Source of the DNA: an uncultured Planctomycetaceae bacterium
Lineage (GTDB): Bacteria > Planctomycetota > Phycisphaerae > SM23-33
Direction of reading: 5' to 3'
Length of the DNA: 61,485 nucleotides
Assembly (NCBI GenBank): GCA_964497475.1
Contig: CAZCDM010000001.1
Span: 1 to 61,485 of the forward strand
Below are positions 4,925 through 61,485 of this stretch, in pieces; position 1 is the stretch's first letter, and each line of letters opens with the position of its first letter. Below the pieces are notes generated by a model, which was given only the letters and a program-made list of their open reading frames with translations, was not told the origin of the DNA and made no database searches. The translations under genes and the position numbers were made by a program.

Positions 4925-4925
4925 G

Positions 4926-6937: not shown

Positions 6938-7945
6938 ATGAAATATCTGGTATGGGCGATACTGGTACTTTTTTTTATGCAGTATGCATCTGTTCGAGCG
7001 GATTCGAGAGAGGCTGCGTATACCGGCCTGACCCAGCCATCGAAGGAGGTCATGATTGGGTTTCTTCAGCCTGGCCGAGTAAAACAGGTTCTTGTCAAGG
7101 AAGGGCAGAGGGTCAAGGAAAAACAGGAACTGATTCATCTCGATGATTCGGTAGATCGTGTGATGCTTAAGCAATTGGAGATGCGAGCAGCCAATAATAC
7201 GCGCATTGAAGCCGCCCAAGCGGAGCTCAATCAGAAAATGGTGGATCTCAATCGTGTCGAGATGCTTCGTAAGCGGGGGGTAGCGACCGTCACGGAATTG
7301 GAGCATGCCAAGCTCAATAGAACGGTCGCTTCCTTGTCAGTCGATCTGGCAAAGTTCGAACAGAAACAGGCAGAACTGAAGCACGAGGAACTTAAGACAC
7401 AATTGGAGCAGATGGTTTTGGTCAGCCCGATTAACGGGGTTGTCGAAGCCATAGCCGTAGACAAAGGCGAACCAGTTGACCGGCTGGAAAAAGTTGTCCA
7501 TATCGTGGAGATTGATCCGTTGTGGATCAGTGTTCGGATCCCGCTTGCTGAGGCGCAGAAAATCCCTCTCGGCCGAAAGGTCGATGTTCGGTTTCCAGGC
7601 TTGGGACATAAGCAGATTCAAGGCAAGGTAGTTCATAAGCCCGCTGTCGGTGACTCAGCTAGTGGTACTCTTGAACTCCGCATCGAGGTCGCGAATCCTG
7701 ATGACAGGCCAGCCGGTCAGGAGGTCTGGGTGAGCATTCCCGATCTCAAGCCGTCGGCCCCTGCTCGCAATGTGCCAGTCAAAGCCCAAGAAGATACGCA
7801 GATGGAGAATGAGAAGGAGCAGGGGAGTCTTACTGAGGATCGGGATGAGTCCGACACGCCTGGCTTGTCCGAAATGCGCCAAGCACAGCCATGCGTTCAA
7901 GGGAAAGTGCGGGCTATTGACGAGAGTTCAAGTGCCAGCAGTTGA
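6938..7945 (+). CDS. Secreted HlyD-like (barrel-sandwich / coiled-coil / beta-barrel) adaptor protein, 335 aa
   Basis: ATG 6938 with AAGGA at 6923-6927. Signal peptide MKYLVWAILVLFFMQYASVRA. Lipoyl-like motifs (GRVKQVLVKEGQRVKEKQELIHLDD ... SPINGVVEAIAVDKGEPV) flank a coiled coil, followed by a beta-barrel (KVDVRFPG ... LELRIEVANPD) and an acidic tail. GC is clearly lower than in the three genes upstream. Confidence 0.75.
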   Translation: MKYLVWAILVLFFMQYASVRADSREAAYTGLTQPSKEVMIGFLQPGRVKQVLVKEGQRVKEKQELIHLDDSVDRVMLKQLEMRAANNTRIEAAQAELNQKMVDLNRVEMLRKRGVATVTELEHAKLNRTVASLSVDLAKFEQKQAELKHEELKTQLEQMVLVSPINGVVEAIAVDKGEPVDRLEKVVHIVEIDPLWISVRIPLAEAQKIPLGRKVDVRFPGLGHKQIQGKVVHKPAVGDSASGTLELRIEVANPDDRPAGQEVWVSIPDLKPSAPARNVPVKAQEDTQMENEKEQGSLTEDRDESDTPGLSEMRQAQPCVQGKVRAIDESSSASS

Positions 7946-8491
7946 TGTTCTATGTGAATCGCACATGGGGTTCTCAGAGTGGTGAACAGGGGGAGGTAGT
8001 TCATCATATCCGAGGATCAGATCAGAATCAGCTTCTGGAATCTTGCGAATTTTTTCTGCGTTAGCGCATTCTTTATCTGGCTGTCCGATTAATGCAGCAG
8101 CGGGAAAAAACGGGGAATCGCCCTTCTGGGAAGGGACAAAATGAAATGTCCCTGTGCATTAAATTTGAGTTTTGTAAGAGATGCGTTCAGGTCGCGCAAA
8201 GGCGAAATGCTAACGGGTCTTAACTTGAAAGCGGCTGGTATTCACTCCAGAATGTGCGCGTAGAGTACGTCTCTGGGCTTGTCATTCGGAGCCGAGCCAC
8301 CGTCAGTGACGCATTCGTAATGAAATGGAATTCGGAATAGAGCGCAGTATGCCGCTGAACTCTCCAATAAATCTTGGTCTCGTGTTTATCGCCTTTTTCG
8401 GGGCACCTTTCAGGTATGCCCTTTCCTTATTGCGCAGATCGAACGGACTGGACAGGTCTTCATCTGCGTTCATTCCACGAGGAGTGAAATC
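7946..8491 (+). promoter_or_regulatory. AT-richer 546-bp spacer; probable promoter/5' UTR of the giant gene, with Shine-Dalgarno GGAG at 8481-8484
   Basis: This is the only long non-coding gap between + strand genes. GGAG at 8481-8484 lies 7 nt before ATG 8492. There is an inverted repeat AGGGACA (8132-8138) / TGTCCCT (8147-8153). No promoter consensus can be assigned confidently for this lineage. Confidence 0.4.
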
Positions 8492-8728
8492 ATGTCTTTG
8501 ACCTCGAAAGCGTACCAACGTCTTTGCCACATGTATCGCGTTGTTCTGATGAAGATGCGTGTGAAGAACTTCATGCAGTTTGCGTATCACTCGCCATTGG
8601 CGGGCAAACGCAAGGGCAGGGGCGGTCTGCGCCGACGGCGAGGTGGCGAGGACGGGGCCACTGCGCGCGGAGGGGGTGTTGCGCCATCCAAGCGTATCGA
8701 GATGCTCGAGCCGCGCGTCATGCTTTCC
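8492..8728 (+). other. N-terminal leader: Arg/Gly-rich stretch followed by the LEPRVMLS motif (8705-8728)
   Basis: Translation: MSLTSKAYQRLCHMYRVVLMKMRVKNFMQFAYHSPLAGKRKGRGGLRRRRGGEDGATARGGGVAPSKRIEMLEPRVMLSGTPL. There is no classical hydrophobic signal peptide. LE(P/D)RxLLS after a basic stretch is a motif I recognise from the N-termini of large Planctomycetota (and some Verrucomicrobiota) extracellular proteins. Confidence 0.6.
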
Positions 8729-11700
8729 GGTACCCCGCTGGGTGATCCGGACGATGAGGAAGGTTTTTCCCAGCAGGCCCATCAGCAGATTGACGAGGGG
8801 CTTGGCAAGCTGGCTGCTCTGGGCGAGATGATTGACACTTCGACGGACTTCGCCCAGGACATCATGGTGTTTCAGGGGGCAGAGGGCCTTGGCGAGCTGT
8901 TCGATCTTGGCGATGTGGTGGCCGAGCAGTTGCGTGCTCCGCTGGCGAGTTTCAATTCGATTTCCGATATTGACGGCGATGGGCTGGACGTGGGCGATTA
9001 CATCTCGGCCCTGGAGGCCTTGGCAACGCCGGCCGACTACAGCGATGATACCGGGCCGCTTGGCTTTGCGGTGGATGTTCTGGCTGGCGGATACTACGCC
9101 GACAGCGACCAGCTCGATTTTGAAATATCGATCAATGCCGAACGGCTTAGTGAGATTACTCTGGCCATGGGCGATGAACTATCGGCCTTTGGCATTACGG
9201 CCGGCGCGGGCGAGGCGTTCGAGTTGGCCACTCAGTTGGAGTTCAATTTCGCCTTCGGCCTGATGAATGTCAATTCCACCCCGAGCTTCTACATCCGTCA
9301 GATGGGGTTGGCCTTTTCGATGGATGCCACCTCGCCGGAGATTTCCCAGCAGGTTCAGATCGCGCACCCCTCCGGTGGCGTGGCCCTGGCGACGACAGCC
9401 ACGGGACAGGTCAGCCTGCTCGATGCGGGGGCGACGGTCGCCTTTGCCGATTCGCTCCTGGCCGATGGCATGGTGGACTCGGCGGAGCTGGACTCCATGG
9501 GGGCCAGCGACCTGCTGATTGAGATGACCGGTTCCCTGGAGGCTTCGCTGGACGTATCGGCCACCGTGCCGGGCTTCAGCGACCTGGGTGGCGGGACGCT
9601 TCGTCTCCGTAGCGATTCGCTCTTTGGCGGCGAGGCATCGGAGGTGAATTTCGACGTGGCCGTCAGTGACGAACTGGCCGGCCATCTTGTCGACGTGTTC
9701 TCGCAGATTCACGGCCTGGGCACGACGCTGGCCGGTGATGCAGACCTGACGGCTGCGATTCCAGGCGTGGGGATCAGCCTCAATGAGTTGCTTGGCGAAG
9801 GTGGTATTGATGGGCTGCTGGGGCGGGTCTCTGACGCGGCAGGACAGTACCTGGCAGGGGCTGAGGACATCAGCATCTCCGAGTTGGTGGAGTATATCGA
9901 GGATCAGTTCAATGCCGCCGAGTTTGACGTTGACCTTGGCGGGCTGGACGTTCAGGGCGGCTACGATAACAGTCAGCAGACGTTGTTCATTGACCTGTCG
10001 ATGGCGCCGCAGTACACCGAGGCGTTCCAGTTGGACTTCGCCTCGATTGCCGACTCGATCGCCGCTTCGCTGCGGACCGATGCCACCGTCGATGTGACCG
10101 TCACCGGCGCGATGGACCTGCGGATCAATGTGGACCTCAGTGATCCCTACGTCACGGCCGAGGATGTGTGGTTCGCTGCAGGCCAGGGCAATGATATTCT
10201 GGACCTCTCGGCGGTGATCGAGAGTTACGATCTGCTGTTTGACGCGAGTTTTGCGGGCCTGGGAGTGACGGCTGGCACGGCGGCCAATCCGGCTTCGATG
10301 GTGGCGACGATGTCCTTGGCGGCGGGGCTGATCGACAATGATGAAGATGATCGCGTGAGCCTGGCCGAGCTGCTTTCGGGCGGTTCGGGCATTGCAGCCA
10401 GTCCGTCCGGAAGTGTCGATGTGACCCTGCCGTTTGGCGTTACGCTTGGCGGGTATGATTTCACCGACGGCGGAACGGTCCTGCCGGTGATTGAAATTTC
10501 CGACTCGGCTCTGTTTGACGGCACGGCTGCGACGATTACGACCAGCAACCTCGATGCGATGGTACTGGCGATCGTCGACGACCTGGCCAGCCCGGCCACG
10601 ACGGCCCTGCAGCAGTTGGATACGCTGGCCGGTCGGCTGGAGTCGATGCTTTCTCAGGCAGGTCTGAGCGACGCGCTGACGGCGGTGATTCCGGGCGTGG
10701 GGCTCTCGCTCAACGACCTCTTCGGCCAGGGCGAAACCGGCCTGAGCGACTTCCTGGATATCGGCCAGCATATTCGCGATTACCTGGCTGGATTCGACGC
10801 GGGAAGTTGGCAGATCGGCGATGCGCTGCCGACTCTGCCGGAACTGGTCGAGTACCTCAACCTCAACTGGATGACCACGCTGCCGGGCGAGGGCCATAGC
10901 CTGTCCTGGGAGCTTACGGCAACGGGGTTGGCGGTGAATTTCGTGTCGCAGTCGAATTTCAGCCGACAGGTGGCGTTTGATCTTGGCGCCGAGGCCGAGG
11001 CGCTGGGCCTGACGGCCGAGGGAGAACTGGGTTTCGATTTCCAGACCGATATTGACTTGGGCTTGGCGATTGACTGGTCGACCGGTGCGGTGACGGTCGA
11101 CGTCAATACCTTCGACTTTGACGCATCGGCCGACATGGCGAACTTCCTGGCTGGCGGCCGGGTTGGCCCGCTGGCGATTTCTCTGGGGCGCGACGGCCAG
11201 TACGGCTCGGCGCGGATTGACATTGCAGGGGCGGTTACCTGGGATGACACCAACGAGACCCTCGCGGTGGTGATGGACACGGCCAGCGAGGCCAATCGGG
11301 TTGACGTAACGCTGCCGGTTTTCGCTACGCTGAGCGGCACGTCGCTGGCCGATGAGGCCAATCCGCCGGCGATCACGCTGGCCGGCGAGCTGTTTCCGGC
11401 CGTGCCCGAAGACGGCGTGAGCCTAGACGTGAGCGGGCTTGGCGACTTGCTGGACTTCGGCGAGTTGAGCTTCAGCGATGTGGCTCGGGCCCTGAATGAG
11501 GGCGTGGATTTTCTTCAGAACGCCATCGAGCGGATGCCGTTCTACCGCGAGGTTCTTCCGCTGATCAACCAGAGCCCGGCCGAGATTTTCACATTCATTG
11601 ATTCGCTGCAGGACGCGGTAGACGATGCCCTGGCCGATCCGCAGGCCACGTTGCAGTCGATCGAGTCGGCCATTGAGTCGGCCCTGGGGATCGTGGATGA

Positions 11701-14700
11701 CAACACCGCCGCGGCCGGGGAGCAGTTCTTCAAGCTTTCGCTGGATAGCGATATTTTGCAGATACACTTCGGCCTCGACGAGACGATTCAGCAGAGTGTG
11801 CCTCTGCTGCTGGACGTGTCAGCCTTTAAGGAGATGGTCGGCGGGGTCAGCGAACTGCTGGGCATTGACCAGTTGGCTGCATCGGCCGGTGGGCAGATCG
11901 CCATCGACGCCTTCCTGGACGGCGATATCGAGTTGGGCGTGGACCTCGGTGATGTTGCATCGGGCGCGCCGGCGGTTTTCCTGTACGACCAGAACAACAC
12001 CGCCAGCCTTGGCGGGGCGGGGACCCATCTCACGGCCGGGTTCAAGGTTCTCGGCAGCGGTTCGGGCCAGGCCGAAGCCCTTACCTTTACCGCCGGCGGA
12101 TTGACCGTCGAGGCCGTTGACTGGGCGGTGACCCTGGACGCCGACAGCGATGCGGGCACGAATCCCGAGTTGCTCACTGCCGGCGATCGCAGCGATTACG
12201 TGACACTCTCACTGGGCCTGGCCGAGCCGGCCGGCGGCAGTGCTGACGGACGATTCTACGTCGGGGAGACGCTCAGCGACGCGGTGGACTTCACGGTTAC
12301 CGGCGGCATGGAGGTGGTTCTGCCGCTGCGTGTCACTGCTGGCGGGCTGGAGCTGGACTTCACGCAGACGCCGCTTAGGATTTCGGGCAATACCACGGAC
12401 TATCCCGACGGCGGAGTACTGACGGAAATCGTCAACCGCCTGACGGGGCAGTCTAGCGGCGGGGCTCTGCCGATCACCTTCGATCATCCTGACATGGCGG
12501 CGGTGATGGGGCAGGTTTCGGGGCAGCTTATGGCCGATGCCCTCGATGCCCTGGCCGTCCGGCTGGAAGGACTCAAGCAGCAGCTGATGGACAACGTCCG
12601 CGACACGCTCTCGGCGACGATTCCCGGCACACATTACAGTATTAACGACCTGCTGGACCTCGAGCGCGACGAGGCGTCGATTCCTGAAGAGATCACGGCC
12701 GACACGTCGCGGGGCATGGAGCTCTACCTCACAGCGGGCGATCATCTGGCGACGTATCTGCAGACCCTCAGCCTCGACGGGCCCGTCAACGCGATGACCA
12801 TCGCGGCCGGCGCGATGGACTACCTCAACACCCACTGGATTCCGACACTGCCGGGCTACGATGCCGAAAGCGGCACGAGCCCGCTGAGCCTGACGATGCA
12901 GAGCGATCTGACCAGCGGTGAGATCGTCGGGTTTACGGTGGCCTTCGACGGAACGACGAGTTTCACCCGCAGCGTGGACATGAACCTCGGGGACGAGGCC
13001 GACGATCTGCATATGAAGTTCTCCGCCGATGCCCAACTCGATCTGACGATCGATGCCAACGCGGCCTTCAGTTTCGGCGTGGACCTCACCGGCGGGGTGC
13101 CGGATTTCAATTTTGACGTCTCGAACCTCAGCGTGGCCGTCAGTGGCGGTGCCAGCGATATCGTCGCCGGTGTGGAGGTCGGGCCGGTTTCGGCGACGAT
13201 CGGTACGGACGCTGTCGGCGGAAGCAAGGGCCAGGCCACCCTCACCAATGTCGGCGTGGCCCTGACGATTCCCGCCGGAAGCGATTTGACCTTCGACGCG
13301 ACCGGGCAGGTGGATATCGTCCTGCCGTTCTACGCCCAGCTGGGGGATTACGACTTCAACGCCAATGACATCGTCCCGACCTTGAGCTACCAGGGGTATC
13401 TCTTCCCCGAGGCCGGCCAGGATGCCGCCGCCTTCAGCCACAGTAACTTCGAGGAGTTCTTCAATCTCAGCCGCTTCAGTGTTGACGACATTCTGGCGAT
13501 GCTCGAAGAGGTTCGCGACTGGTCGGCGACGCTGGGCGAGAACGACTGGTTCGCCGCGAACATTCCCTTCGTCGATATCACCCTGGGCGATACGCTGGAC
13601 TTCGCCGAGGGGTTCAATGAGGAAATCCTCAGCCGGATCGATTTTACCGCCATTGAGTCGCTGCAGGATTTTATTGTTGAATTTGCCAATGCCGGCCTGC
13701 TGCCCCAGGGCGTGAGCCTGGAATACGACCCGGCCGAAAACGCATTCATCGTGCCGGTGGCGTTCGACGTGAACCTGCTGGACCTGGAAGGTTTGGCCCT
13801 GGATTTCGGGATGGACCTTGGCGATGAACTGCTGGCCCTGGAGACCAGCTCGACGGCCGACGTGGGAGCGTCGGTGAATACCTCCTTCGATCTGATTATC
13901 GACCTGGACGATGACACGTCGGGCAGTGTCCTGCCGACGTGGTATCTGGATGATTTTACCCTGGGCGGCACGGCCGGGTTCAATGTCGACAACCTGGAAG
14001 TCGCGGCCCGGCTGGGATTCCTGGGCGTGACGCTTGGTGGCGATGCCGCCTCGGGTATCGATTTCGATGCAACGGCGACGGTGACTCTCGGCGATGAGAC
14101 CAACTCGCGATTCGCCCTGGCGGAGTTGCTCAACGGCACGCTGCTGGACAACCTGCACTTTGACGTTACAGGCAGTGGCATTGCTTCGCTGCATGGCCTG
14201 GCCGTCGGGGGCGATTACGGCTCGGTGCTCGCGGCGCCGGATGCAACCCTGGGCATTCATGTTCAGGACATTACCGATATCGGTTCGACGGTGACGCTGA
14301 ATCCGGCGTCCGGCGAGACGGTGGACCTTGCCGCGATGGTCGCCTCCGGCGAACTCAATGCCAATGATCTGGTGGTCATCGTTCCCGAGCTTGGCGATGT
14401 CTTCAACGTGCGGAACCTGGATTTTGGCGCAATCATCGGTGCGCTCAACGAGGGGCTGGAGGTACTCGAACAGTCCCTGGCCGATACGGCCTTTTACAAC
14501 GAGACGATTCCAGTCATCAATCGTTCCCTGAGCGACGTGTTTGATTTTGCGACAACGTTCGCCGATCGCGTGGCCGATGCGGCGGCCAACCCCGTCGCCA
14601 CGCTGCAGCAAGTCGAATCAGCTCTCGAATCGGCATTGGGAATCGAGGATGACAACACCCTCGCAGCCGAGAATCAGGCCCTGGCCCTGACGTTGGCCGA

Positions 14701-17700
14701 TACCGTCCTCACGTTGCATGTGCAGTGGGATGCCGTCTTCAGCGACATGCTCGCGTTCAATCTCAACCTCGCCGAGCTCAAAGCCTTGGCCGGCAGCGAT
14801 GCGGGCGTCGGGCTGGAGGGCATTGATACCCTGGCCGACACCCTCAACCTCACCGCTGGCGGGAACCTGCTGATGGAAGCCTTCGCCGAGGCGGTCATGG
14901 ATGTCGGCATCGACTTTGCCCCGGTGGTCGACTCGGCCTCGCTGCCGGAGATCATCGTCTACGGCTATGACGAAGCCAGTGACACCGGCACGCACGTCGA
15001 GGTTGGCACGCGTGTCACCGGGCAGGACCTCGAGCTGGGATTCTCCGTCGGCCCGATGGATCTGGGCGTCATCGGCGGATCGGTTCTGCTGGATGGCGAT
15101 GGGCAGTTCTCCACGACCGACGATTTTGCGACCTTCCAGGCCTCGCTGAACCAGGACTACACGGTCGGCGACGCGTTCAGCCTGAGCCTCATCGACTGGG
15201 ATCTCACCGGCGCCTTCGCCGTGGACCTGCCGATCGAACTGGGCATTGCTGACGTACCCCTGGAACTCGGCTCCCTGACGATCACCACCAACGAAGCCTA
15301 CGGCGACGGGGGGCTCGAAGAACTCTTCAAGAGTCTCGCTGGTGATGCGACCGCCCAGGGCCAGCCTATTTCCATTACCGCACCGAATATCGTGGGCATG
15401 TTCCAGCAGTTCGGTGGCGAATTCAGCCTGCTTGCGATTCTCAACGACCCGTCCTATATCCTTGACGGAGTGGATATGGGCCTTGGCGTCGTGCAGGATA
15501 TCCTTGGCGATAATGCGGCGATATCCCTGCCGCTGATCGGCGATAAGCTCGATAACGTCGCGACCTTCATACGCGACATGCGGCAGGGGTTCCTGGGCGA
15601 TCTTCGCCAGCGCCTCAACGATCAGCAGCCCGTCGAGATGCTCCAGGAGTCGATGTGGACCATTTTCGGGCCTTCGGCGCTGAATATCCTCCAGGACACC
15701 GATGGCGACGGCACGATTACGATCGACGATATTCAGGTCGGCTGGTATGACATCGACGGTAACCTTCTGGAACTCTGGCAGCCGGGTACAACCGTGCCCG
15801 TCGAGGCCGACGCTCTGGAACTCAACGTTTCGCTGGGCGGTACGGCCCTGAGCACGGGGATCGATATCCCGCTGGATTTCGATATTCCGGGCCTGAGCAT
15901 GGAAATCAATGGCGGGGTCGGCCTGGAACTGAACTGGAGTTATGACTTCGGGCTGGGGCTCAGCGCGACGGACGGGTTCTACCTTGTGACCAACGCCGAT
16001 GAAGAAGACGAAGAAATTGAAGTGACCATCGAGGCGTTCCTCGATGGTACGCCGCTGAACCCTGCCAGCCGGACCTACTTTACGGCCAGCGGACAGTTGC
16101 TGTTTTTCGATGCACTGGTGTCCGACAACACTACCGGCTCGGAGTTGACGGGCACGTTGAGCATCGACCTGGATGGTGGAGTCGACGGGCGACTGACGTT
16201 GGATGAGCTTCTGGCTGGTGATCCGGATGATATCTTCGATGCGGACCTGGCGGTCGATGCCAATGTCAATCTCGGCGTGACCCTGCAGATGGCTGGTTTC
16301 CAGGGCCTGCCAACCCTCGGCGGCGATTTCGTGCTGGACTGGCATTGGGATCTCGAGAACGGTTCGAGCACGCCGAACATTTCGCTGATGAATCTCAGCA
16401 TCGACGTCGGCACGCTGGTAGCCGACTTCCTCCATCCGATTGTCGAGCGAGTCAACAGCGCTCTCGAACCGGTCGCACCGATCATCGAAGCGCTGACAGC
16501 CCCGCTGCCCGGGCTGGATCGATTCTTTGACGAGCCGAATATGCTCGGCATGATCAATATCATCCAGGAGCTGCGAGGCAAAGATCCGATCGACTGGAGC
16601 TTTGTCTACGCTGCTCGTGACATCCTCGGTACGGACACGCAGCCGGGCCTGCTCGACCAGGTCGAAGACATGCTCGACATGGGGGGGGAGATCGTTCTGG
16701 GGCACATCTATGGCTTGGGAACCGACGACGTCAGCTGGTCGTCAACACTGAGCACGGGCGATAGTGACTACGCGGCCTTGGAAATCAAGGAAAGCGGCTT
16801 CAAGCAACTCGGTGCCGGTGGCAGCGCTACGGCCACCCAACGGGCCGGGTTTGAATTCCTGCCCTACATCACGGATATCGGCAACTGGGCTCAGTTGCTG
16901 ACTGGCGGGGATGCGACGCTCTTCACCTACCAGATGCCGCTGCTGACGGCCGACTTTGATTTCCGCGTATTGCTGGGCAAGATTCCCCTGCTGCCCACGC
17001 CGGTGAGCATTAACATCTACGCCAAGGGTGGGGTCGACTTCACTGCCGACCTGACGTTCGGATACGACACGTACGGCATTCGCAAGGCCATCGAGCAGAA
17101 GAATCCGTGGATGGCTTTCGATGGGTTCTATATCAGCGACAATATCGTCGGCAATATCGATAATCCCGAATTCGAGTTCGACGCAAACATCGGGCTGGAG
17201 GTCTCTCTCGATGCCCTCATCGCCGAGGTCGGCTTCAGTGGCGAGGTGGTTCTGGAGACCGATATCGACCTCAACGACGTGGTGCATGACAACAAGATTC
17301 GCGGCAGCGAAATGGTCACGATGTGGACCTACGAGCCGCCCGACGCCGACGAAACGGGTACGGGGACAGGCGATGGCGAGGAGACGCCGGCCTTTGATCT
17401 CTCGACCATCGGCGGGCCCTTGAACCTCGTCAATATCGACGCCCGGCTGGGTGCGGTCATCGGTTTCTTTGTCGAGGCGGGCATCGGACCGTTCTCCAAG
17501 CGGTGGGATATCGAGATTGCCGACTTTACGCTGATGGAATTCCAGGCCCGAGGTCCGCAGGTCGAGCCTCACCTGGCTCATCGCAGCGGCAGCACGCTCT
17601 ACCTGCACACCGGCAGCCGGACCGCTGAGCGGAAATACTTCCTGGCAGAGGATGAAAACGGCGTGGTCGACCTGGCCGATAACTATCGGCTTAGTGGCGC

Positions 17701-20700
17701 CGGCGGGGCGGTCACTGTCGAGTACGACGAGTGGACTCAGACGTATTACGGCATTACGAAAATCGTCGCCGATGGTGGCGAAGGCGATGACGTCTTTGAC
17801 GCCTCGGGCCTGCGGGATGTTCGCCTGGAGATCGATGGCGGGGCGGGCAACGACCGGATCATCGCCGGTGCGGCGGCCTCGGCCGTTCTGACCGGCGGCG
17901 CCGGAGATGACGTCCTGGACGCCTCACGGTCCTGGTATGCCTATCTCCACGGTGGCTCGGGCAGAGATACCCTTATCGGTGGCTATGGGAATGACGACCT
18001 GATCGGAGGGACGGGTGACGATTCGATCACCGGCAATGCCGGCGACGATCGCATCACCGGTGGCGCCGGGGCCGATACCATCGCCGGCGGCCAGGGCGAT
18101 GACACCTACCTCTTCGGCGATGCCTGGGGTAGTGATCGCTACCGCGACACCGAAGGCACGAGCACGCTGGACTACTCGGGCGTCACGGGCGACCTGACGA
18201 TCACGCTCAACCAGCGTGGGGCGGAAATCATCCATGGCGAGTCGCGTGAGGTGGTTACCCCGGCCGGTGATGTGCAGGACATGATCACCGATGCTTTGCT
18301 GACACCCAACCCGTACAGCCGCCCGCAGATTCCCATGCAGGAAGTCCAGGGCCTGGTGATTCACTATGTGGGGAATCCCGGCTCCAGCGCGATGGACAAC
18401 CGCAACTACTTCGAGTCGCTGAAAAACGGCGCCGGGTATGCCTCCAGTCAGTACATCGTCGGGCTTGAGGGCGAAATCATCCGCTGTGTACCGGAAGACG
18501 AAGTGGCCTATCACGCCGGAGGGGCAAACTATACCGACCTGGCACGCGATCGGTTCTGGGATGCCAATCGCGGGCGGATTTATCCGCACGACAAGGTCAT
18601 CGGCATCGAGACCTGCCACCCCGATTCGACGGGACAGTTCACGCAGGTTACGGAAGATGCTCTCGTGGCGCTGTCGGCCGATATCGTCCGCCGCTACGGG
18701 CTGAGCCGCGATGAGGTCCTGCGGCATCATGATGTGACCGGCAAGGACTGCCCCAAGTATCACGTCGATCATCCCGAAGCCTGGGAAGCGCTGGTCGACC
18801 GGATCATGGCTGCTGCGGCCCAGACGCCGGTCGAATCGGGCAGCGAGACCGTTGTGACCACGCAGCTCGGTGCGGTGCAGACCGGCCGCGGCGACGTTGG
18901 AAATATTATCACCCGCTTCGGCGATTTTGATCTGAACATCGGTCGTCCGGTCAGTGCCTTCGGTGCCGATGAAACGACCCAGCGGCTGGCCGAGGGGCTC
19001 GAAGAACTCAGCCAGTATGCACGCGACATGAAGGACTCGCTGCTGGAAGACATCGCCGGTCAGATCGGCCAGCAGATTCCCGGCACGGGCCTGAGCGTCG
19101 ATGAACTGCTCGACATGCGGGCGTATCTCGGCCTGGGCGATTACATCCAGGCCTACCTGTGGGGCTATACCCACCCCAGCGAGCCGCTGCCCGACAGCGA
19201 ACTGGACATCCCCATCGGTACCGATGCCGAGCCGACGGTTGGCGGGTTGGTCGACTACCTCGAGAGTTACTGGTTCCCGGCCCTGCTGGGAGGCCAGGCC
19301 CAGGGAAGCCCGATGACCCTTTCGTTCTCCAAGACCGACGGCGTGGTGACCGGGCTGGCGATGGATTTTGACGGCGAGGCCACCTACACACGCGACATTC
19401 TGGTTTCGCTTGGCTCCGACGCCGAAGCGCTGGGGCTGCAGTTGGCTGCCGACCAGACCGCCACCGTCGAAATCACCGCCGGGCTGGACTTCTCGATGAG
19501 CCTGGACTGGTCCAGCGAGACACCCGCCTGGAGCTATCAGGTCGACGAGTTGACCTTCGACGCACAGGCCGACCTAGACGGTGTGATCCTGGACGGAAGG
19601 GTCCACGATCTGGCGGTCACGACCGGCCGCGCCGGGGCCTCGGCCGGTACGTTCGACCTGACGCTTGATGCGGATATCACCCATGCCGCCGATTCGCTGA
19701 GCCTGACTCACAGCGGCACGGTGGCCCTGATCATGCCGATCTACGCCGAAATCGCCGGCACGCATGTCAACACCGCCCCGGCGAGCCTCTCGATTACAGG
19801 CGATATCGACGCCGGGACGAGCAGCTTCAACGCCATGAACTTTGAAACCTTCGACGCTTTTGCCGACGTCGAGGTCGAGACGATCATCCAGCGTCTCGAA
19901 ACGCTGGGCCGATGGGTCGAGGGCCTGGCTGGGCCCGACATGGGCGCGGTGGAAATCCCCTCGCTGGGCCTGACCGTGGGTGAACTCTTCCAGCTTGAAG
20001 ACAGCTGGGCCGCAGCCTATTCGCAACTGGACCTCAGTGGCGCGACAACCATTCAGGATGTCCTGGCTGCGATCGAATCGGCCGGGCTCGTTGCCAATGG
20101 CCAGGCCATCAGCTATGACGCCATCGAGCGAACCATTACCGTTCCGATGAGCTTCGACCTGAGCCTCGCAGACGTCCAGGAATTGCTGGTTAATACCGGC
20201 GGTCACTACGACGCAGAGTTCGAGGCGATGCTGCTCGATGCAATCGCCGCTCTGGCCGGCTCGGCCCGTGCGGAGGTCACCTTCGTTATCGATGCTGACG
20301 GCCCCGGCGCGACCGAAGGCTTTACCACCTCGGCTCAGATGCACATTACCGCTTCGGCCTCGGACATCCACTTCCCAGCCCGACTGGGCGACCTGGAAGT
20401 CAGCGTCGGCACCGAAGCATCCGGCACGGCTGAGATCGATCTGACGATGACCGCTTCGATGATCGAAGCGAGTGAAACCTTCGACCTGACCACCGGCGGA
20501 ACGATGAATGTCTACCTGCCTGTCTATGCGACCCTGGCCGGGACGAACATCAATCCGACACACACGGCAGGGCTGAGGCTGACGGGAACGGCCTTCGGCG
20601 CCGGTGGCATGGCCGTGACGACCGAGAATTTCGACAACCTCGTGGCCTTCGAGACGCTGACAGCCCAGCAGTGGCTCGACCGCATCGAACAGGCGGCCCG

Positions 20701-50700: not shown

Positions 50701-53700
50701 TGCCGCCGGCGTGGTGGACCTGAGCAACGGCTCGACGCTGGCCACCAGCGAAGCCGGCAGCTCGGTCAGCGTTACGGGTCGGACGGTAGAACTGGCCGGT
50801 GCGATCTACGCCGGTGGCGATTCCGACGGGTTGACTGCGGCCGATGCGGACCTGGCCATCAACGCCACCGAGCGTGTCTCGGTTGGCACGAGCACCATGG
50901 GCAGCATTCTGGCCGCCTCGGGCGATCTGACGATCGATGTTGCCGATGGCGTCTCGCCGGTGGACTTCGAGCTGTCGGCTGACAGCATCATTCGCTCGAC
51001 GGGCCTGGTGGGCAATGCCGACCCGAGCAGTGTCACGATTACCACGGACCATGACATGTACATCGACGGCCTGATCGAAAGCGTCGACGAGGGCTCGGAT
51101 GTGACGTTGAATTCCGGTGGACTGATCATGATGGACGGCTTTGTCGAGGGTGAGGAGTCGGTCACGATGACCGGCGGGGATCATGTCTCGGGTGTGAGTG
51201 TCATGCTCAAGGCGTTGGTCTTCGAGACGGATGCAGAGGGGAATATCCTCAACGAGGACGGCCTGCCGGTCGATAGCTTCGGCGGCGACCCGGCCCGCGT
51301 CAGTGGCGGCGTGATCAATACGGCTCCGGGTGGATCGATCAACCTTGGTGGAACCGGCCGGATCGTCATCGACGGCATGGTCGGGCGTGTCTACACCGAC
51401 GAGAATGATCTGCCTGACGTTGATGTCTCGACGATCGATATCTCGACCGACGAGGATATCTATGTGATGTACCTGGTCAACGCCCAGGACCGCATTACGA
51501 TGGAAGCCCGCGACGTGATGATCCTCAACGAGGCGATGGTGATTACCCGCGCTGACGATTCGAGCATCTACGTCCAGGCCGACCGCAACATGACCCTGGC
51601 CCAGGGTCAGGAGTTCGAGCGGGCCCGTCTGGAATCCGGCAATATGGTCCAGGTGTACGGCGGCGATATCCGTGTGGACGGAACGCTGCGTGCCCGCAAT
51701 GCCGGCGGTGTGGTTCGACTGGATGCGATGAATGACATCACGGTCACGGGGCATGTCGATTCCTACGGGACGGTTGGCCTCAATGCCGGCGTGGCGAGCA
51801 ACCAGGATCCGGCGCTGCTCCTGGCGACGCAGTTCACTTCGGAATCGCTCTCGACGGAAGGCGATATCCTGATTTCCGGTGAAGGCCAGCTCGAAGCCGA
51901 CGGCGACGTCGCCCTGACGGCTGGCGGGAATGTGGACATCGAAGCCTACGCCGTCATGCAGGACGATCAGATCGCCGTGCCCGAGCCGTATATCTCGGTC
52001 GAGACTCGCTATGTCCAGGTGTTGACGGGCACGAAGCAGGTGGCTGTCGGGTTCATCGACGTGCCGGTGGTCAAGTGGGTCGACAGCACGGAAATCGTGC
52101 AGACCGGATGGGATCCGATCAAGATCGGCGAGTGGTACACGACAATCGACGTCGATGTCGACCAGATCGGTTGGTTCGATTCGGCGACGGAGACCGAGTG
52201 GGAAGCCGGCGTGGACGGCCCGACCCTGGTGGACAACGGGACGGACAACAGTCAGTTCACGCTCGATTACACCGACGAGACGGCCGAGTTCGTTAAGCTC
52301 TATCAGGCGAATTACGATACCGGCAGCGGGCGATATCACATTGTTCGCAACGGCATCCAGGTCGTGGCTGTTGAGAACAACCAGTGGGTGGCCGACCATG
52401 TCGCGCCCGAGGCGCTGCAGCCTGCACCGGAGTTTGACGGATATGTCTACCTCGACAAGAGCGTCTACGATCAGCTCCTGGCCGACGGGGTCAACGACAC
52501 CACCGAGGTGCTCAAGCGGCATGGGTATGATCCGATCTGGTCTGGCTCGACGCAGTGGAAGTACGTCCATGCCGAGGAGTTCCTGGGCGAGAACTACAAT
52601 GCGGACAATGACGAGCACAACTTCTATGTCAAGGTCCAGGTAGACCCGCTCACGGGCACGAGTGCCGAAGAGGATATTCAGATGGCGGTGGCCGGCGTGG
52701 CCGATGCGGTGAGCTACGAGGATATCGGCGATACACGGCTGGACGTGCAGCTCAAGCTGCATCAGATCGGCTGGTGGAATACCGATACGCAGACTGGGCT
52801 GCGAGACAGTCGCGCCCAGAGCGACTCGCCGGACGACCGTGTCGAAGACGACTTCCAGCTGGGCGTGCCCCGGCCGGACGGCAGCCAGTGGGTCGAGTGG
52901 TACGAGCTGGAGCTGATCGGTTCCACGCGTGAGGTGACTATCACTGACGGCCGAAGTGACTACGTCTACGCGGACAACCCGGTCTGGGCGGCCAGTGGCA
53001 TTACCCAGACGCACGGCATTGAGGCGGACTTCGATGGCACGACGCAGATGGTCTATGTCCAGGTTCCGGTGGCGATCACGCAGGTCAACGGCGGAGCGCA
53101 CATGGATCTGGCGAGCTTCGACTGGACGGCTGACCTGACCGGATCGACGGTCTACAGCGAAGCCATCGACCCGGCTGCCCAAGCGGATGTCTTGGCTGCG
53201 TTGGACTTCCTGGCGGTCGAAGACCTGGCCGACTACACCGATGGCGCGGGGCAGGTCGACCTGGCTGCGATGGTTGATGATGGCGTGGTGAGCATGACGC
53301 AACTGGTGAACCATGGCCTGGTCTCGAAATACGACATCAGCCAGGGGCTGCCGGTGACGATCACCGTCGATGCGACCCAGATCGAAAACTTCGATCACTA
53401 CTCCGTCGGTCATCACGCCGAATACCTTGGCCAGTGGCGGGACGACTGGGGTATGTACCAGGGCAATGCGGCCGAGGGGATCGACCACAACAGCGGCCTG
53501 ATGGGCAGCGACGAGACGGTCGATATCACGGGCACGCACACCTACAAGGGCACGACCTACGATGTGCCTGGTTATACCGATGTCATCCGTCGGGAAGGGT
53601 CGCAGGATGGCCGCCACGAGGTGCTTCGTAATTACAGCGATGCCTATACCTGGGAGCGGCAGGACTGGAACGATGAATTCGGGCGATATGGTGCGAGAGT

Positions 53701-56700
53701 ATCCGCCGATCATGGCCTGCGTCCGGTCGGTTCGGTGATCCATATCACCAACGCCGAGAGCGAAACGCAGGTGATGGCGGACAGCAACAGTGGCGACTAC
53801 GACACGCGAGACAGTGGCCATAATGAAGCGGTTAAGATCCTTGTTCGCCGCGATGGCACGAATGCGGGCAAGCATGAGGTGTGGTACAGCTACAGTGCCG
53901 AATATGACATCGTGCGGGATAACCTGGGCCACTATTACGGCTCGTCCTATCACGCCGAAGACAGCCTCTTGCCCATCAATACGAGCAATACGACCTCCCG
54001 CGCAGATGGCAGCACGTCCGTGCCGGATGGCTTTATCCGCAAGCTCGTCGGCTATGCAGGCACGGGCAACAATCGCCATGAGGTCTGGCAGGAGATGCGG
54101 CAGTACAACTGGGAGGGCAGTGAGTACACCGTCAAGGTGACCGATGAAAACCACGGCCTGCGGAGCGTGGGTTACACCTGGTGGTCTGGGACGCCGTGGC
54201 AGACCAATGGCTGGCAGTATACGATCATGGAACACCTTGACGAGCGGGGCAACCATTACGAGCGTATCCGTCAGCAGAAATATCTGGGCAATTATCGCGA
54301 CGTCTGGGACGAATGGACATCTGATGCCGGCAGCCACGACACCGGCCTGCGTTCGATCGGCACGCACTGGTGGGATTCCAGCCGCACCGACTGGACCGGC
54401 AGTGGTGGCAGTAAGACAGCTAGGCAGTATAAGTATTGGGTCGACGACTATGCTGGCAGCGATTCCAACCGTCATGAGGTAGTCAAGCGACAGTACTATT
54501 ATGGCAACTACCGGGACTACGAGTCTACGTCTGGTTGGATTAAAGCTAACGTCAGCATATTTGGCGGAGGCGCACCAGAGATCGGGCATGAGGAAATTCT
54601 TAGTGATGGTCGGATGCGCAGGATTGATGACACCAAATGGGCATGGTTCAGCTGGCATGTTAAATATAAATACTATTCTGTCAGCTATGATCACTGGGGC
54701 AGCGAATACTCTGGAACAGGGAAGTATACGACCGCCGATGATAATCACCCGAATGTAGGGGATGTTCTGGAGACTTATTCGGGTGGAAGCCGGGAAGTCC
54801 TGACGGGTAAGGGGTGGCAGAATAATCACTACATTCTCGAATATGAACGGCAAGGCAAATCGTATGCTCACTGGTCGAACACCGCCACGGTTAACGGCAA
54901 TACGACTACGGCGGAAAGCCAGACCAACGGTCTCTCTGCCGGGTATGTCATCAGCAACGGGGACGGTACGCGCGAATACTTCACGGGTAATTACCGCTGG
55001 AGCGGCTCGGACTGGGTCGCTGTCTGGGAACACCAGGACAAGAACTTCGTGGTCGGCGGCTCGGAGACGATCGTGCTTAACTCCGCCGCGACCGGAGCCT
55101 ACACCACCGCAAAGAGCGATCTGGAGTCGCTCAATGACATAGGTGATACCGAGACGCTCAGCGGCGGGATGATGCGCGAGCTGGTGGGCTACGAGTGGGT
55201 TGGAAACCGCTACTACGAGGTATGGGATCATTTCAGTGCCGAGTACAAGGACTTCCAGGATCTCGAAGGCGGAACGCTGTACGGCGACGTCTACCAGACC
55301 TGGCAGACCACGACGGGCAACACATCCAATTCCGGCAGTGCCTACTGGATCCTCAACCCCACCGGTTTGGTCGATTCGAACTGGGAGTCGTTGCCGGGCA
55401 ATGCGGACTATCATCAGGACTACGCCGGTTATGTGCTCTATCATCCGAACGTGAATCTTGTCGGTACGGTGGAATTCCGAGCGGGCAATCCTTCCCTGAT
55501 TCGTGAATGCATCGATCAGCGATGGGAAGACTACGACGTCGATGGCGTGAAGCACTGGCGACTGGAAACCCGTTGGCAGAACAAGAATGTCAATAAGGTT
55601 ACGGCCAATCCGCCTTCGCTCAGCGAAGCGCTAATCGGCAAGGGTACGCTCATCAGCAGCAACCTGAACCTGTATCAGCGTGTCGTGGCTGGGCCTTCCT
55701 TCGAGATGATGCGCGAGTATGGTGGCGAGTGGCAGGCTGTCACCCGAGATGCCTTGGACAAGGCCGGAGCGATCTACGCCTGGCGGTACTCGGATGCGAA
55801 GTATCAGAACTACCGCAACATGGTTGCCAACAATTATGATGGCGGAGCCTACCGAGATTATCTGGGCAGCTCGACCGGGCGAACTACCGACGCCCTGAGC
55901 CATCTCAAATCACTGAGTGCAGATGGCAATGGCTATGATGGCGGAGACGTCGAAAACGTCACCTATACCAAGACCAATGACGGGACACGGGTCTTTGATG
56001 AATATGTCTGGGTCAACGATAACGTTTACGAAACCTGGGATTACTACAGCGACTGGTACAAGGACTTCACCGTAGGCGGGCACAGTGGTGTGCATGTGTA
56101 CTATGACTTCAACGGTGCCGATGCGCCCTCCACAGCCGACCAGGCTGCCTCCTCGCTGAAGGATACCTGGACTGGGGAGTACGACGGCGCATACACCAAC
56201 GCCGAAACTCTGGTTCACAGCAACTACCCGCTCGAAATATTTGAGCCGATTACCGGTGGTATACGGACGGTTGTCGGGCACGACTGGGATGGAGATACAT
56301 ATTATCCCTATTGGAAGCATGAATCGGACGTCTATGATCACTACCAGCCCTACGCTGGCAGTTCCGATTATCACTTCGATGCCGATAATCCCGAACTCTA
56401 CCCCGAGCGGTTCAGCTATTACGACAAGGCCGACTGGCGTCGTGAGACGCAAAGCCGTCAGTGGGATCAGGTCCTCGTTGGCTTCCATGATCAGGATCAG
56501 GGCTACTATGACGACTTTGGCCAGTGGGTCGAGGTGGCTGATGGCTACCAGAACCATCCCGAAGCCGGCAACAATAACGACTATTGGGATGCGGATGTCC
56601 AGTGGGTCTCCGACATGGTGCGCGTGGACGACTTTGCCGATCGGTATCATTACGGATTCCACGGTATGTATAACTGGCATGACGTGGAGGACGAGCGTCA

Positions 56701-59700
56701 GCACCTCAACTACACGGTCACGAGCAACACCCACGAGGTTTGGACCCTCAAGCCGCACCTTGAAGAGCGTGATATCAAGGTCAAGGTCATCGAGTACGTT
56801 CAGGAAACGCAGTGGGAGACCGTGCCCGTCTACGAAGAGCGCCCCGTCTACTCGACCAAGCGCGTCTACGAAGACGATCCGGATTTGGTCAACTATGCCG
56901 CCTTCGAGAACGAGTCCATCCTGGCTTCGGGCATTCTGGATGTCGACGCAGGCGGGGATGTCAGCCTCAGCGGCAAGATGGACGCGGCCTCGGCTGACAT
57001 CTACGGCGGTGGTGTCGTCACCATCAACGGCATCCTTCCTGACGATGCACCGGCCGGTACGCTGGCTGCAACGTCCATCCTGCTCGGCCAGGGCGGTCGG
57101 GTCGATGTCACCAGCGGCGGCAACCTGATCATCGGCGATGCGGCCTTGATCGGCATCGATCAGGGCGAACTGGCTCCGGTCTCCACCAGCATGAGCTTCT
57201 CGGCCGGTGGGGATATGATCCTGGAAGGCAACCTGGCCGGCACGGATGAAATCACCATCACCGCCGACGGTGATGTCCAGCTGACCGGCGAGGTCCAGGC
57301 CGGCTCGGCCATCAGCGTCACCGCCGGTGCCGACGGAACCACCGGCGATATCACCGGGAATATCTACACGCTGCTGGCGCTGACTGGCCAAGGCGGTACG
57401 GTCGACCTGCTGGCCGGCCTGACGGGCGGCGACATCATATTGACCGATTCCGAGATCGCTACCGCGGGTGGTACGATCAGCCTGACTGCGTCGGCCGGCA
57501 CGATCGTCCAGACCGGTGGCCACATGGCAGGGCAGAGCCTCTCGGCCTCGGCCCTGAACGGGCTCAGGGCCAACACCGCCGTGGCGGTCATCACCGAAGC
57601 CCTGTTGGCCGGCGCCGGCGCGATCGATCTGACCACCCTCGGCGATGTTCGTGCCAAGAAGATCATTGCCCATGACGGCAGTGTCCGCATCAAGAGCATC
57701 GGTGAACTCATCGCCGAAGAAATCGCCATCACAGTCGATCGTGAGATTAACGATCTGGAAATCCAAACCATCCGACCTGAGACGGGCCAGGGCGATCTGA
57801 CCCTCGGCACGGTCAGTCTCGGCCAGCTTGGCGATGTGACCTTGGACGTCCAAGGTGCGATTGATCGCTGTGAAGATGAGGCTGTCACGGCGGCCAATGG
57901 ACTGTTCATCACCGCCGCCGGAGGAGTGAACCTCGCCACCGCGGTCGATACCCTCACGGTCGAAACAACCGCTTCGGGTGACGTCGCTATCGACGAAGCC
58001 GATGAACTGTTGCTGCCCACGGCGGTAACGGTCGATGGTGCAATTTCCATCACGACCGGCGGCGCACTGACGGCGCACGACGTGCGCTCACTGACCGATG
58101 CCGAAGCAAACGACATCCGTCTCATCACCGAATCGGGTGACCTGCTGTTCGACAGCGTCGTGGCCGGCACCTATGCCGCCTCGGCTGAGCAGGCCCAACA
58201 GATTCAGCTCGACCGCCTCAATACGCGGCTGATCCAGTTCGGCCTGGGCACGGTCCTGACCGACGCCCCGACCGAGCTGACCCTCGACCAGGTCCGAGCC
58301 ATCGTCACGCTGGTCGATGGTGGCGATCAATCGGCCAGCCTCTCTGTAGATGGTGTGCAGATCACCTGGGCCGATGCCGACGCAATCTGGACCGGCCTGA
58401 TCAACTCCATGCAACTCGATGCCGTAGCCAACGCCATGGCCAACCTTGCCGATGACGCCACCCAGGACGAAATCGACCAGGCCGTCGCCAAAGCGCAGGC
58501 CGAAGCGCAAGTCGAAGCCGTCGAACAACTCCGTCTCGAGAAGAAGTTTACCTCGCTCGGGGACGTGACACTCACCTCGGCTGGACTCCTCCAGGAGCTC
58601 TCGCCGGATGACGCCGTCGACCTCATTGCCGACCACGCCGTGCTGACCACGCCCTCGGCCATCCGTGGTATCGAACTGGCCCTGAATTCCGTCGAGGTCT
58701 ATTCGACGGCCCAGGGAGATATCGAACTGTACGACCTGGATGGCTTTGAAGAGAAGTCCACCGGCCTGCGCGTTGACGCAGCCCAAGCCGCCGACGGGTC
58801 CATCACCATCCAGGCCAATGACGGTCTGGAAATCGGCTCGGCCCGGGCTCTGGCTGACGGGGCCGACATGAACTTCACCGCCGTGGGCGGAAATCTCACC
58901 GTAAACGACTCGGCCGATACCATTGCTCTTCAGGCCAACGATGAAATCCGTCTCCATGCCGATGGCGGGATGAAGATCGAAAAGGCCCTCCAGGCCGGCA
59001 CTCTGATTGATATCTACGCGCAGACCACACTCAGCGGACCCGATACCGAAGTGATCTATGGCGTAGGAAGCAATGCCGATCAGGTCATGGAGACCATTGA
59101 ATATCCGCTCGACCTCGTGGTCACCGGCCCGGCCGGTGTGATCAATATCTACACCGGCGATTCTTTCTCTGCTACCGGTGCGCTTCAGGCCGATCAACTC
59201 GTGGCCATTACTTCCGGGGGCGATATCAATCTCTCCGGCACGATCACCGGCTACAACAACGAGTCGGTCAGTGATGTCATCCTCAACGCCGAGGGGCTGG
59301 TGACGTACGATTCCGGCGCAGGAACCGGGTACGTCGACATCGCCGATGGGGAGGTGTCCGCGGCCAACCTCTTCAAGGTCACCGCCTCCCGCACCCTCAA
59401 AGTCACCAGTTGGAACCTCTCCATGACCGGGCCGGAGGGCAATATCGAGATCATCACCGGCGACGATATCATTGTCGACGAGGATATCCTCCTCGAAGCC
59501 ACCGAACGGATCTATCTCGAGTCCACCGCAGGCGACATTGTCGTCGATGGTACACTCCAGGGGCGCGATGGCGGGCTGCTTAGCGATATTACCCTGCGGG
59601 CAGCCGGCGATATCGATCTCGGCAGCAGCATGACCGCTGCGCATCTCATCGATATCAGCGCCGGTGGACAACTCTATTCCGAGTCAATGGACCTGACTGC

Positions 59701-61485: not shown

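Follow-up and report, generated by a model that had tools for sequence, protein, structure and literature searches.

An uninterrupted 53-kb reading frame at a contig end in an uncultured Planctomycetaceae bacterium encodes a predicted giant protein of the LEPR-XLL family

When a reading frame stays open for 53 kb and is still open where its contig stops, is it one gene, and what sort of protein might it specify? The question is raised by a contig of an uncultured Planctomycetaceae bacterium (Phycisphaerae, SM23-33 in the GTDB lineage; GenBank assembly GCA_964497475.1, contig CAZCDM010000001.1), of which we analysed positions 1 to 61,485 of the forward strand, hereafter the window. We found the frame to be a single genuine gene that has an intact 5′ end but loses its 3′ end where the contig stops. 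Profile matches place the encoded protein in a large family of giant proteins, and its one recognisable enzymatic domain suggests a role in attacking bacterial cell walls.

A single coding sequence that runs off the contig

In a recomputed six-frame scan, the plus-strand frame with codon starts at 2 modulo 3 was free of stop codons from 8324 to 61483 (53,160 nt), compared with 656 and 662 stops in the other two plus-strand frames. The earliest in-frame ATG, GTG or TTG is the ATG at 8492, which opens a giant open reading frame (ORF) of 17,664 codons (52,992 nt; 8492-61483, plus strand) up to the window end and from which all amino acid (aa) positions are numbered below. A Shine-Dalgarno-like GAGGAG (8479-8484, plus strand), read from the sequence, lies 7 nt before this start codon. 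The G+C contents of the first, second and third codon positions (GC1, GC2 and GC3) are 0.644, 0.422 and 0.775, a pattern matching that of three of the four upstream genes, and the order GC3>GC1>GC2 holds in 174 of 175 overlapping 600-nt windows along the giant frame, the sole exception being the GGx-rich second RTX block. The JGI annotation likewise called a partial gene of 17,688 aa that runs off contig Ga0153773_1000277 (61,641 bp; metagenome 3300012009).

We regard the gene as genuine because its coding periodicity is continuous, because Pfam domains lie in frame and because the repeat module that it encodes has more than 1,000 homologous proteins. As a single uninterrupted coding sequence with coding statistics it falls within the usage of bacterial giant gene by Reva and Tummler (2008) for genes of more than 5 kb, and giant proteins of more than 10,000 aa are on record in Planctomycetota (PMC12673574). 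The visible part of the protein has a mass of 1.862 MDa, an isoelectric point (pI) of 4.05 and 7 Cys residues, with 2903 acidic (D+E) against 644 basic (K+R) residues. A preliminary description of this DNA had claimed an absence of in-frame stops between 8492 and 61483, real coding sequence, a visible part of about 1.9 MDa that ranks as a bacterial giant gene, a C-terminus outside the window, and a strongly acidic, nearly Cys-free protein, all of which agrees with these results. It had also remarked that the ORF is absent from the accompanying ORF track. The absence is real, but it reflects a mere rule of the ORF lister, which omits ORFs running off the sequence end, and the JGI annotation did call the gene.

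The track shows 46 ORFs of 150 aa or longer over the giant region. The minus strand accounts for 43, which span 8303-61473 and the longest of which reaches 1,626 aa. Taken at face value, this list would mean that the region encodes about 40 minus-strand genes and that the long plus-strand frame is their by-product, a reading to which we attach practically no probability. The ten longest minus-strand ORFs all belong to one antisense frame, in which the first codon position falls opposite the GC-rich third position of the giant gene; at 0.73-0.83 their GC1 is higher than their GC3 (0.60-0.66), and three of the four upstream genes show the opposite. No Pfam match above threshold was obtained for the six longest, which yielded a sub-threshold, low-complexity match to Extensin_1 in the ORF at 30080-33343, whereas the plus-strand frame matches Pfam domains and has over 1,000 homologues. 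The 43 minus-strand ORFs are antisense shadow ORFs, and the preliminary description was right to warn that the ORF track alone would have this stretch annotated as about 40 minus-strand genes. ORF listers that drop end-open ORFs turn giant genes of this kind into dozens of spurious antisense genes.

Architecture, relatives and assembly of the giant gene

The visible protein contains two copies of a core that consists of ~275-aa repeats (module A), a segment of roughly 800 aa (segment D) and an RTX block; all features described in this section lie on the plus strand. Near the N-terminus, a basic stretch (KRK, RRRR) is followed by a LEPR-XLL motif (aa 68-84, ...RIEMLEPRVMLSG; 8693-8743), which matched the NCBIfam model NF012209 'LEPR-8K' with 22.5 bits (E 5.8e-5), above the model's cutoff of 17. 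Pfam PF07595 (Planc_extracel), the planctomycete extracellular motif, gave the only Pfam match at the same place, but this match at aa 68-82 is sub-threshold (11.8 vs 25.5 bits, E 0.2) and indicates a resemblance without membership.

The first module A array, delimited by iterative hidden Markov model (HMM) searches of the protein against itself and by alignment, comprises six copies (aa 389-2274; 9656-15313). The run of A modules is then interrupted at aa 2275-3488 by copy 1 of segment D (aa 2275-3094; 15314-17773), identified by homology to copy 2 and to relatives, by RTX block 1 with nine GGxGxDxUx nonapeptides (aa 3095-3207; 17774-18112) and by an Amidase_2 domain (aa 3283-3422; 18338-18757). 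The second array, recognised by self-comparison and iterative HMM searches, then adds about 20 full or partial copies (aa 3489-9780; 18956-37831), bringing module A to about 26 copies over aa 389-9780, with three subtypes and supermodules of roughly 1,200 aa. Within this second array lie pentapeptide-like repeats of the form LNWGE/NWGDL (31073-31531; aa ~7528-7680), encoded by 15-nt tandem repeats that are perfect at 31073-31217 and giving a weak match to the pentapeptide-repeat protein QnrB1 (aa ~7600-7679, E 0.0016). The second core is completed by copy 2 of segment D (aa 9802-10655; 37895-40456), found by homology to copy 1, and by RTX block 2 with eight nonapeptides (aa 10656-10768; 40457-40795). 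Both RTX blocks were recovered by Pfam HemolysinCabind (E 3.4e-15 and 3e-12), by a regular expression for the nonapeptide and by PDB searches, in which they matched the RTX regions of CyaA, a lipase and serralysin.

Core 1 is thus followed by the amidase, and core 2 by a post-RTX region, U1, and about 27 beta-solenoid-like units that we call family B. U1 (aa 10769-11954; 40796-44353) gave no Pfam, NCBIfam or PDB match. The family B units, collected by iterative HMM searches, measure 56-133 aa as matched (mostly ~100) with the consensus ...ITITAGGDLT..., and form an array of 14 units of 92-107 aa at a spacing of ~115 aa (aa 11955-13611; 44354-49324) and a second array that reaches the window end (aa 16149-17656; 56936-61459). 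Between the two arrays is an unassigned region (aa 13612-16148; 49325-56935) with weak internal repeats and two degenerate family B units only (aa 14181-14398). This stretch of ~2,500 residues gave no Pfam, NCBIfam or PDB match, has almost no internal paralogues and has no counterpart among the 150 best relatives described below. The G+C content dips to 0.56 at 54-56 kb, with the coding periodicity kept.

Beyond the RTX blocks, the amidase and the weak pentapeptide match, nothing was recognised by Pfam in 18 tiles of the visible part, by NCBIfam over aa 10,792-17,664 or by a PDB sequence search with the whole protein. No transmembrane helix was found: no 19-residue window had a Kyte-Doolittle mean above 1.8, and all candidates contain charged residues. 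As regards repeats and domains, the preliminary description had pointed to two in-frame RTX blocks, to an in-frame Amidase_2 domain and to paralogous motifs far apart; the nine and eight nonapeptides, the Amidase_2 match treated below and the two D copies, which lie 22.6 kb apart and share 35-53% aa identity, bear these observations out. As to the strict codon periodicity that it claimed for the repeat arrays, the window holds five short DNA tandem arrays, four of which have periods of whole codons (27, 15, 15 and 24 nt), and the fifth, a weak array, has a period of 23 nt.

Relatives were collected with the module A profile from a library of 1.84 billion representative proteins, of which 1,070 matched at E≤1e-3, among them 612 with E≤1e-10. 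The details given here come from the best 150 of the 1,070; comparisons of length concern these listed proteins only, and the library may under-represent very long relatives through fragmentation. The 150 have a median length of ~2,950 aa, 33 of them reach at least 5,000 aa and the longest measures 7,951 aa. A motif of the LE.R..LL type occurs within the first 150 residues of 68 of the 126 relatives that start with Met, compared with 0 of 123 in a control window. Segment D is present in 107 of the 150, and in the long relatives that were examined the order is module A (three to five copies), D, RTX and then a variable region, which may consist of long RTX arrays or of propeller-like or solenoid-like repeats. 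The last RTX lies within 250 aa of the protein end in 29 of the 68 RTX-bearing relatives, a position that would suit type I secretion in some family members but proves nothing for the giant protein. Named members include proteins from metagenome-assembled genomes (MAGs) of Phycisphaeraceae and from Maridesulfovibrio frigidus (WP_031484953.1, 7,259 aa, annotated as 'calcium-binding protein'), and the start of U1 is homologous to the post-RTX region of relatives of the M. frigidus type.

Segment D carries the invariant motif [WF][SH][FYW][DN]FG[LMF]G[LIV]S, and one conserved D peptide pattern led to 57 loci in species-representative genomes (L009-L065). These loci fall in Planctomycetota, Verrucomicrobiota, Cyanobacteria, Magnetococcales, Burkholderiales/Gammaproteobacteria and Omnitrophota, with examples in Mucisphaera sp. 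(L015) and an Omnitrophica MAG (L043), and in the complete cyanobacterial genomes of Calothrix sp. PCC 7716 (AP025018.1, L019) and Egbenema sp. (NZ_CP182236.1, L021). Of these loci, 41 were analysed: the D-containing ORF mostly extends past one or both ends of the locus, and about 15 loci of ~22 kb are occupied by it from end to end. Judged by this distribution, segment D is a marker of giant ORFs that reaches across six or more phyla and at least 57 species, and it appears as the most widely conserved part of the family. Pfam holds no model of module A or of segment D, and the PDB no structural neighbour of either.

We assign the giant protein to the LEPR-XLL ('LEPR-8K') family on these sequence matches, because NF012209 scores above its cutoff and because module A and segment D are common to the motif-bearing relatives. 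The family is a large, cross-phylum group of giant proteins known only through a 24-residue NCBIfam motif, and its layout (LEPR-XLL motif, ~275-aa modules, ~800-aa segment D, RTX and a variable payload) is in no domain database. Where the gene ends of related giants are visible, their flanks contain no conserved secretion or type I secretion system (T1SS) genes; the only neighbours found encode a Na/H exchanger, a transposase, an NB-ARC protein and an Lcl_C protein.

The contrast between two cores here and one in most relatives raises the question of whether the extreme length is partly an artefact, with neighbouring or paralogous genes of the LEPR-8K type, each with one A-D-RTX core, joined in frame, or with a stop or frameshift lost to sequencing error. 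The ceiling of 7,951 aa among the 150 listed relatives and the single contig that carries all positions after 16,911 would fit such an error. The first 16,911 positions of the window recur at 99.96-100% identity in contigs from ENA and Logan, assembled separately from microbial-mat data (runs ERR2407577/78), and the host is probably a Phycisphaerae-like planctomycete living in such a mat. An artefact is, for several reasons, highly improbable. Inside the ORF there is neither a second LEPR-like motif, nor a further basic N-terminal stretch, nor a non-coding spacer, and because the first two of these are missing, the cores cannot be recently fused genes with retained N-termini. The single frame keeps its coding periodicity in all but one of the windows scanned. 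Exact repeats are scarce, amounting over the whole window to 15 repeated 20-mers at three sites, too few to mislead a de Bruijn assembler into a false join; identity among the internal protein repeats is just 33-53%, the two cores share only 35-53% protein identity, and the tetranucleotide composition is homogeneous along the window (r = 0.80-0.95). Two D segments also occur in at least one relative (P0203), and D-containing ORFs elsewhere exceed 7,500 aa while open at both ends of their 22-kb loci. Repeat-driven misassembly is unlikely because repeated 20-mers are few, repeat identity is low and composition is homogeneous.

Attempts to reach the missing 3′ end gave no extension. The last 40 nt of the window had 0 exact matches in JGI metagenome contigs, no related loci were found with the last 600 aa of the ORF, and a word-indexed protein search with the last 800 aa returned no homologue at E≤1e-5, having missed the query itself too. 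That search is weak on this composition (it gave six matches for segment D), and its negatives do not amount to orphan status, given that exhaustive HMM searching and genome scanning found hundreds of relatives. A related giant gene in the ENA assembly ERZ2470813 (NODE_6699, locus L008, coverage 2.75) appears as about eight consecutive small genes on the same strand, a chopping that is probably due to frameshift errors at low coverage. Low-coverage assemblies fragment giant genes, as at this locus, and such genes are then lost in annotation.

The amidase payload and the question of export

The Amidase_2 domain is the one recognisable payload of the giant protein. It matches PF01510 with an E of 4.9e-23 and 82.3 bits against a cutoff of 26, over profile positions 3-130 of 131, and displays the motifs IHY, IGIETC and HHDVTGKDCP. 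Its best PDB relatives are all N-acetylmuramoyl-L-alanine amidases, the prophage endolysin XlyA first, then AmpDh2, AmiD and PlyL/PlyG. The catalytic Glu (in IGIETC) and the His...Lys-x-Cys motif of the zinc site (in HHDVTGKDCP) align with XlyA (3hmb/3rdr), and the first zinc-ligand His (in IHY) was read by eye. The zinc triad noted in the preliminary description is thereby matched to solved enzymes for the C-terminal His, Lys and Cys, and by eye for the first His. On these alignments the active site looks intact and of the endolysin type. None of the 150 best-scoring relatives has an Amidase_2 domain, and its absence there fits a variable or accessory payload and not a family-wide anchoring device.

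Taken as a whole, the explanation that we consider moderately probable is that of a LEPR-XLL giant which is exported, folds with calcium into a fibre and carries a wall-attacking payload. By analogy with RTX proteins, the protein would be exported unfolded from the low-calcium cytoplasm and would fold outside the cell upon binding calcium. An extracellular, calcium-dependent character is suggested by the two RTX blocks, the pI of 4.05, the 7 Cys residues and the lack of a transmembrane helix, and as a targeting signal the LEPR-XLL motif is the strongest candidate. The folded protein might then form a very long fibre or surface appendage in which the repeats serve as spacer and adhesin, so that the LEPR/A/D/RTX core would be a delivery and spacer scaffold and the post-RTX regions exchangeable payloads, of which the amidase would sever the stem peptide from the peptidoglycan glycan. 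Contact-dependent attack on neighbouring bacteria of the mat by means of the amidase is our best guess for the role of the protein, one that seems about evenly balanced, and we make it because the sole recognisable payload cuts peptidoglycan. The amidase payload thus gives a concrete, testable functional hypothesis: attack on the cell walls of neighbours in a microbial mat.

Structure prediction bears on the fibre. An AlphaFold2 model of one module A unit, with 21 internal copies as alignment, reached only moderate confidence (predicted local distance difference test (pLDDT) 77.7; predicted template modelling score (pTM) 0.68), in which the first half is helical and the second has long antiparallel beta-hairpins. 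A Foldseek search of the PDB with this model gave nothing better than E 0.25, with template modelling (TM) scores below 0.25. The model of segment D, from eight sequences, was poor (pLDDT 55.7) and had no PDB neighbour, its best Foldseek match having an E of 0.01 and TM scores not exceeding 0.11. Foldseek also matched outer-membrane barrels and pore formers weakly, which we ascribe to the long hairpins alone and did not use as evidence. Giant proteins of Omnitrophota have been described as containing 'antiparallel beta-helices with external paired helices' (West-Roberts et al., 10.1101/2023.11.21.568195), which the modelled units may resemble.

The same extracellular character, calcium binding and repeats would also fit a structure directed at the producer itself, such as an S-layer-like coat, a holdfast or a motility fibre resembling SwmB of marine Synechococcus, with the amidase remodelling, or anchoring the protein to, the cell's own peptidoglycan. 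Giant planctomycetal proteins have been linked to cell-surface structure (PMC12673574), and the solved relatives of the amidase include AmpDh2 and AmiD, which remodel the wall of their own cell. The closest solved relatives, however, are prophage endolysins (XlyA), the occurrence of the domain in 0 of the 150 relatives points to an accessory payload, and Pfam and NCBIfam searches recognised no wall-binding or S-layer domain. We therefore hold a self-directed structure, though it is the chief alternative, to be rather unlikely.

Several points weigh against the picture of an exported, calcium-folded fibre that attacks neighbours. The gene and its protein are known here from sequence alone, and the ~45 kb beyond position 16,911 are carried by the JGI contig alone. 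The fibre is something that we infer, the AlphaFold2 models being moderate or poor and devoid of a PDB neighbour, and the amidase could act on the producer's own wall. The protein has no classical (Sec/Tat-type) signal peptide, the LEPR-XLL motif is no more than a candidate for the targeting role, and the window contains no ABC exporter. The two RTX blocks lie inside the protein, with 6,900 aa or more between them and the visible end, unlike those of classical RTX exoproteins. The C-terminus, with a possible type I secretion signal, an anchor or further enzymes, lies beyond the contig, and aa ~10,860-17,664, or ~40% of the protein, have few or no detectable homologues.

The lack of a signal peptide and of a nearby ABC exporter directs attention to the genes upstream of the giant gene. 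A cassette on the same strand (225-7945) encodes a DUF3467 protein, a membrane-fusion protein (MFP) with a GAF domain (788-2734), a 727-aa protein that joins an intramembrane HExxH metalloprotease of the daptide type to an MFP module (2741-4924), a truncated SecA of 661 aa (4926-6911) and a small MFP of 335 aa (6938-7945). The SecA matches SecA models up to about position 600 of 790 and is without the scaffold/wing C-terminus; relatives of the HExxH-MFP fusion show a weak PqqD match; and a limited literature search, made for DUF3467 in combination with SecA, listed no paper mentioning DUF3467. Named homologues of the upstream genes come from Phycisphaerae/Planctomycetota MAGs at ~50% identity, and the cassette is conserved in the contexts of six relatives, often beside a divergent TolC-like OEP gene. 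As a T1SS gene set the locus is incomplete, with three MFP-type proteins but no ABC transporter in the window, the ATPase being SecA-like. From these predicted functions the cassette looks like an undescribed tripartite-type exporter driven by a SecA ATPase.

West-Roberts et al. (10.1101/2023.11.21.568195) described SecA domains without scaffold/wing inside giant proteins and proposed that they export those giants. By extension, the truncated SecA, the three MFPs and the HExxH protease, together with a TolC-like protein encoded elsewhere, might form a SecA-powered trans-envelope exporter of LEPR-XLL giants that recognises the N-terminal motif, an in-trans counterpart of the fused SecA of Omnitrophota. 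If true, such an exporter would explain how megadalton proteins without a signal peptide leave planctomycetal cells. The cassette lies directly upstream on the same strand, its SecA is truncated as in the Omnitrophota giants, and the TolC-like gene adjoins it in relatives. The 547 nt between cassette and giant gene (7946-8491) are non-coding, are AT-richer than their flanks and probably include the regulatory region of the giant gene itself; scans detected one weak sigma-70-like site there, at 8225-8253, but neither a terminator-like site nor anything matching Rfam. The comparative evidence points the other way. In the six relatives with a cassette, the visible downstream flanks encode a sulfatase, GH4, YidC and others, never a giant gene, and cassette proteins are absent from all 57 giant loci of the D type, six of which show their upstream flank. 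The giant family extends to Cyanobacteria, Burkholderiales and Magnetococcales, whereas the named homologues of the cassette are all from Planctomycetota/Phycisphaerae, and the PqqD-like and daptide-type protease features point to small-peptide substrates resembling ribosomally synthesised and post-translationally modified peptides (RiPPs). Because no recurrent linkage between cassette and giant gene was found, we rank this exporter as a doubtful, low-probability alternative, and the cassette is probably not a dedicated partner of the giant gene.

Comparison with known giant proteins

The nearest known systems are the other LEPR-XLL proteins, including WP_031484953.1 and a Vibrio protein of ~8,000 aa with RTX repeats (PMC10868602). 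The giant protein resembles them in its basic stretch and LEPRxLLS motif, in the order of module A, D and RTX, and in being an acidic, calcium-binding giant by prediction. It differs in length, being more than twice (at least 2.2 times) as long as any of the 150 best-scoring relatives listed from the library of 1.84 billion proteins, and in having two cores against one and about 26 A modules against three to five. It carries an Amidase_2 domain, which none of these 150 has, and its last ~4,000 aa are almost without counterpart.

Domains of the Amidase_2 type are familiar from T7 lysozyme, XlyA, PlyL/PlyG, AmpD/AmpDh2 and AmiD, with which the giant protein shares the PF01510 domain and the aligned Glu and His...Lys-x-Cys. 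The known enzymes are proteins of ~150-260 aa or phage endolysins with a wall-binding domain, whereas here some 3,280 residues precede the domain, and the protein has more than 17,000 in all. Giant RTX adhesins secreted by the type I route include MpIBP of Marinomonas primoryensis (~1.5 MDa), LapA of Pseudomonas and SiiE of Salmonella. By what is established for these adhesins, the likeness lies in megadalton size, extender repeat arrays, RTX blocks, acidity, few Cys residues and the lack of a classical signal peptide. The repeats of the giant protein are nevertheless unrelated to the Ig-like/BIg repeats of these adhesins, with no Pfam or PDB match; RTX is C-terminal in the adhesins and internal in the visible giant; a LEPR-XLL motif stands here and not a retention module; and no ABC transporter gene lies near the giant gene.

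Two giant hemagglutinin/RTX-like symbiosis proteins of Chlorobium chlorochromatii reportedly measure 20,646 and 36,805 aa. Giant RTX-like proteins of this kind have been studied experimentally with regard to calcium-dependent folding and action on a partner bacterium (Kuzyk et al., 10.64898/2026.03.19.712371). The Chlorobium giants and the protein described here are alike in size class, in proposed extracellular, calcium-dependent folding and in a proposed action on a neighbouring bacterium that includes degradation of an envelope polymer. The enzyme is an alginate lyase there and a peptidoglycan amidase here, the phylum is another, and the two are likened by description and not by sequence.

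Giant proteins of Omnitrophota reach 85,804 aa (10.1101/2023.11.21.568195), and the 'Archaeovorin' and 'Dockerin' giants of that phylum, from the same study, resemble the planctomycetal one in extreme length, in a proposed attack on bacterial cell walls, in large unannotated stretches and in an association with SecA lacking scaffold/wing. They have many transmembrane regions, whereas none was found here, and their domain content differs. Their SecA domains lie inside the protein; here SecA is encoded upstream by a gene of its own, and synteny does not support a link between it and the giant. In 18 tiles of the visible giant protein no SecA Pfam match (SecA_DEAD or SecA_PP_bind) was obtained, though the missing C-terminus may yet carry one.

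Planctomycetota are enriched in proteins of more than 5,000 aa (PMC11573180), and documented planctomycetal giants of more than 10,000 aa have been linked to the cell surface and to calcium binding (PMC12673574). At 1.86 MDa or more, the protein described here is among the largest recorded bacterial proteins outside Omnitrophota and Chlorobium. Giant genes in Planctomycetota and a family tagged by NCBI were thus already known, and what is new is an unusually large member of that family, not a new kind of protein. Judged from its predicted architecture, it is set apart from its listed relatives by its length, its two complete cores, the number of its A modules and its amidase.

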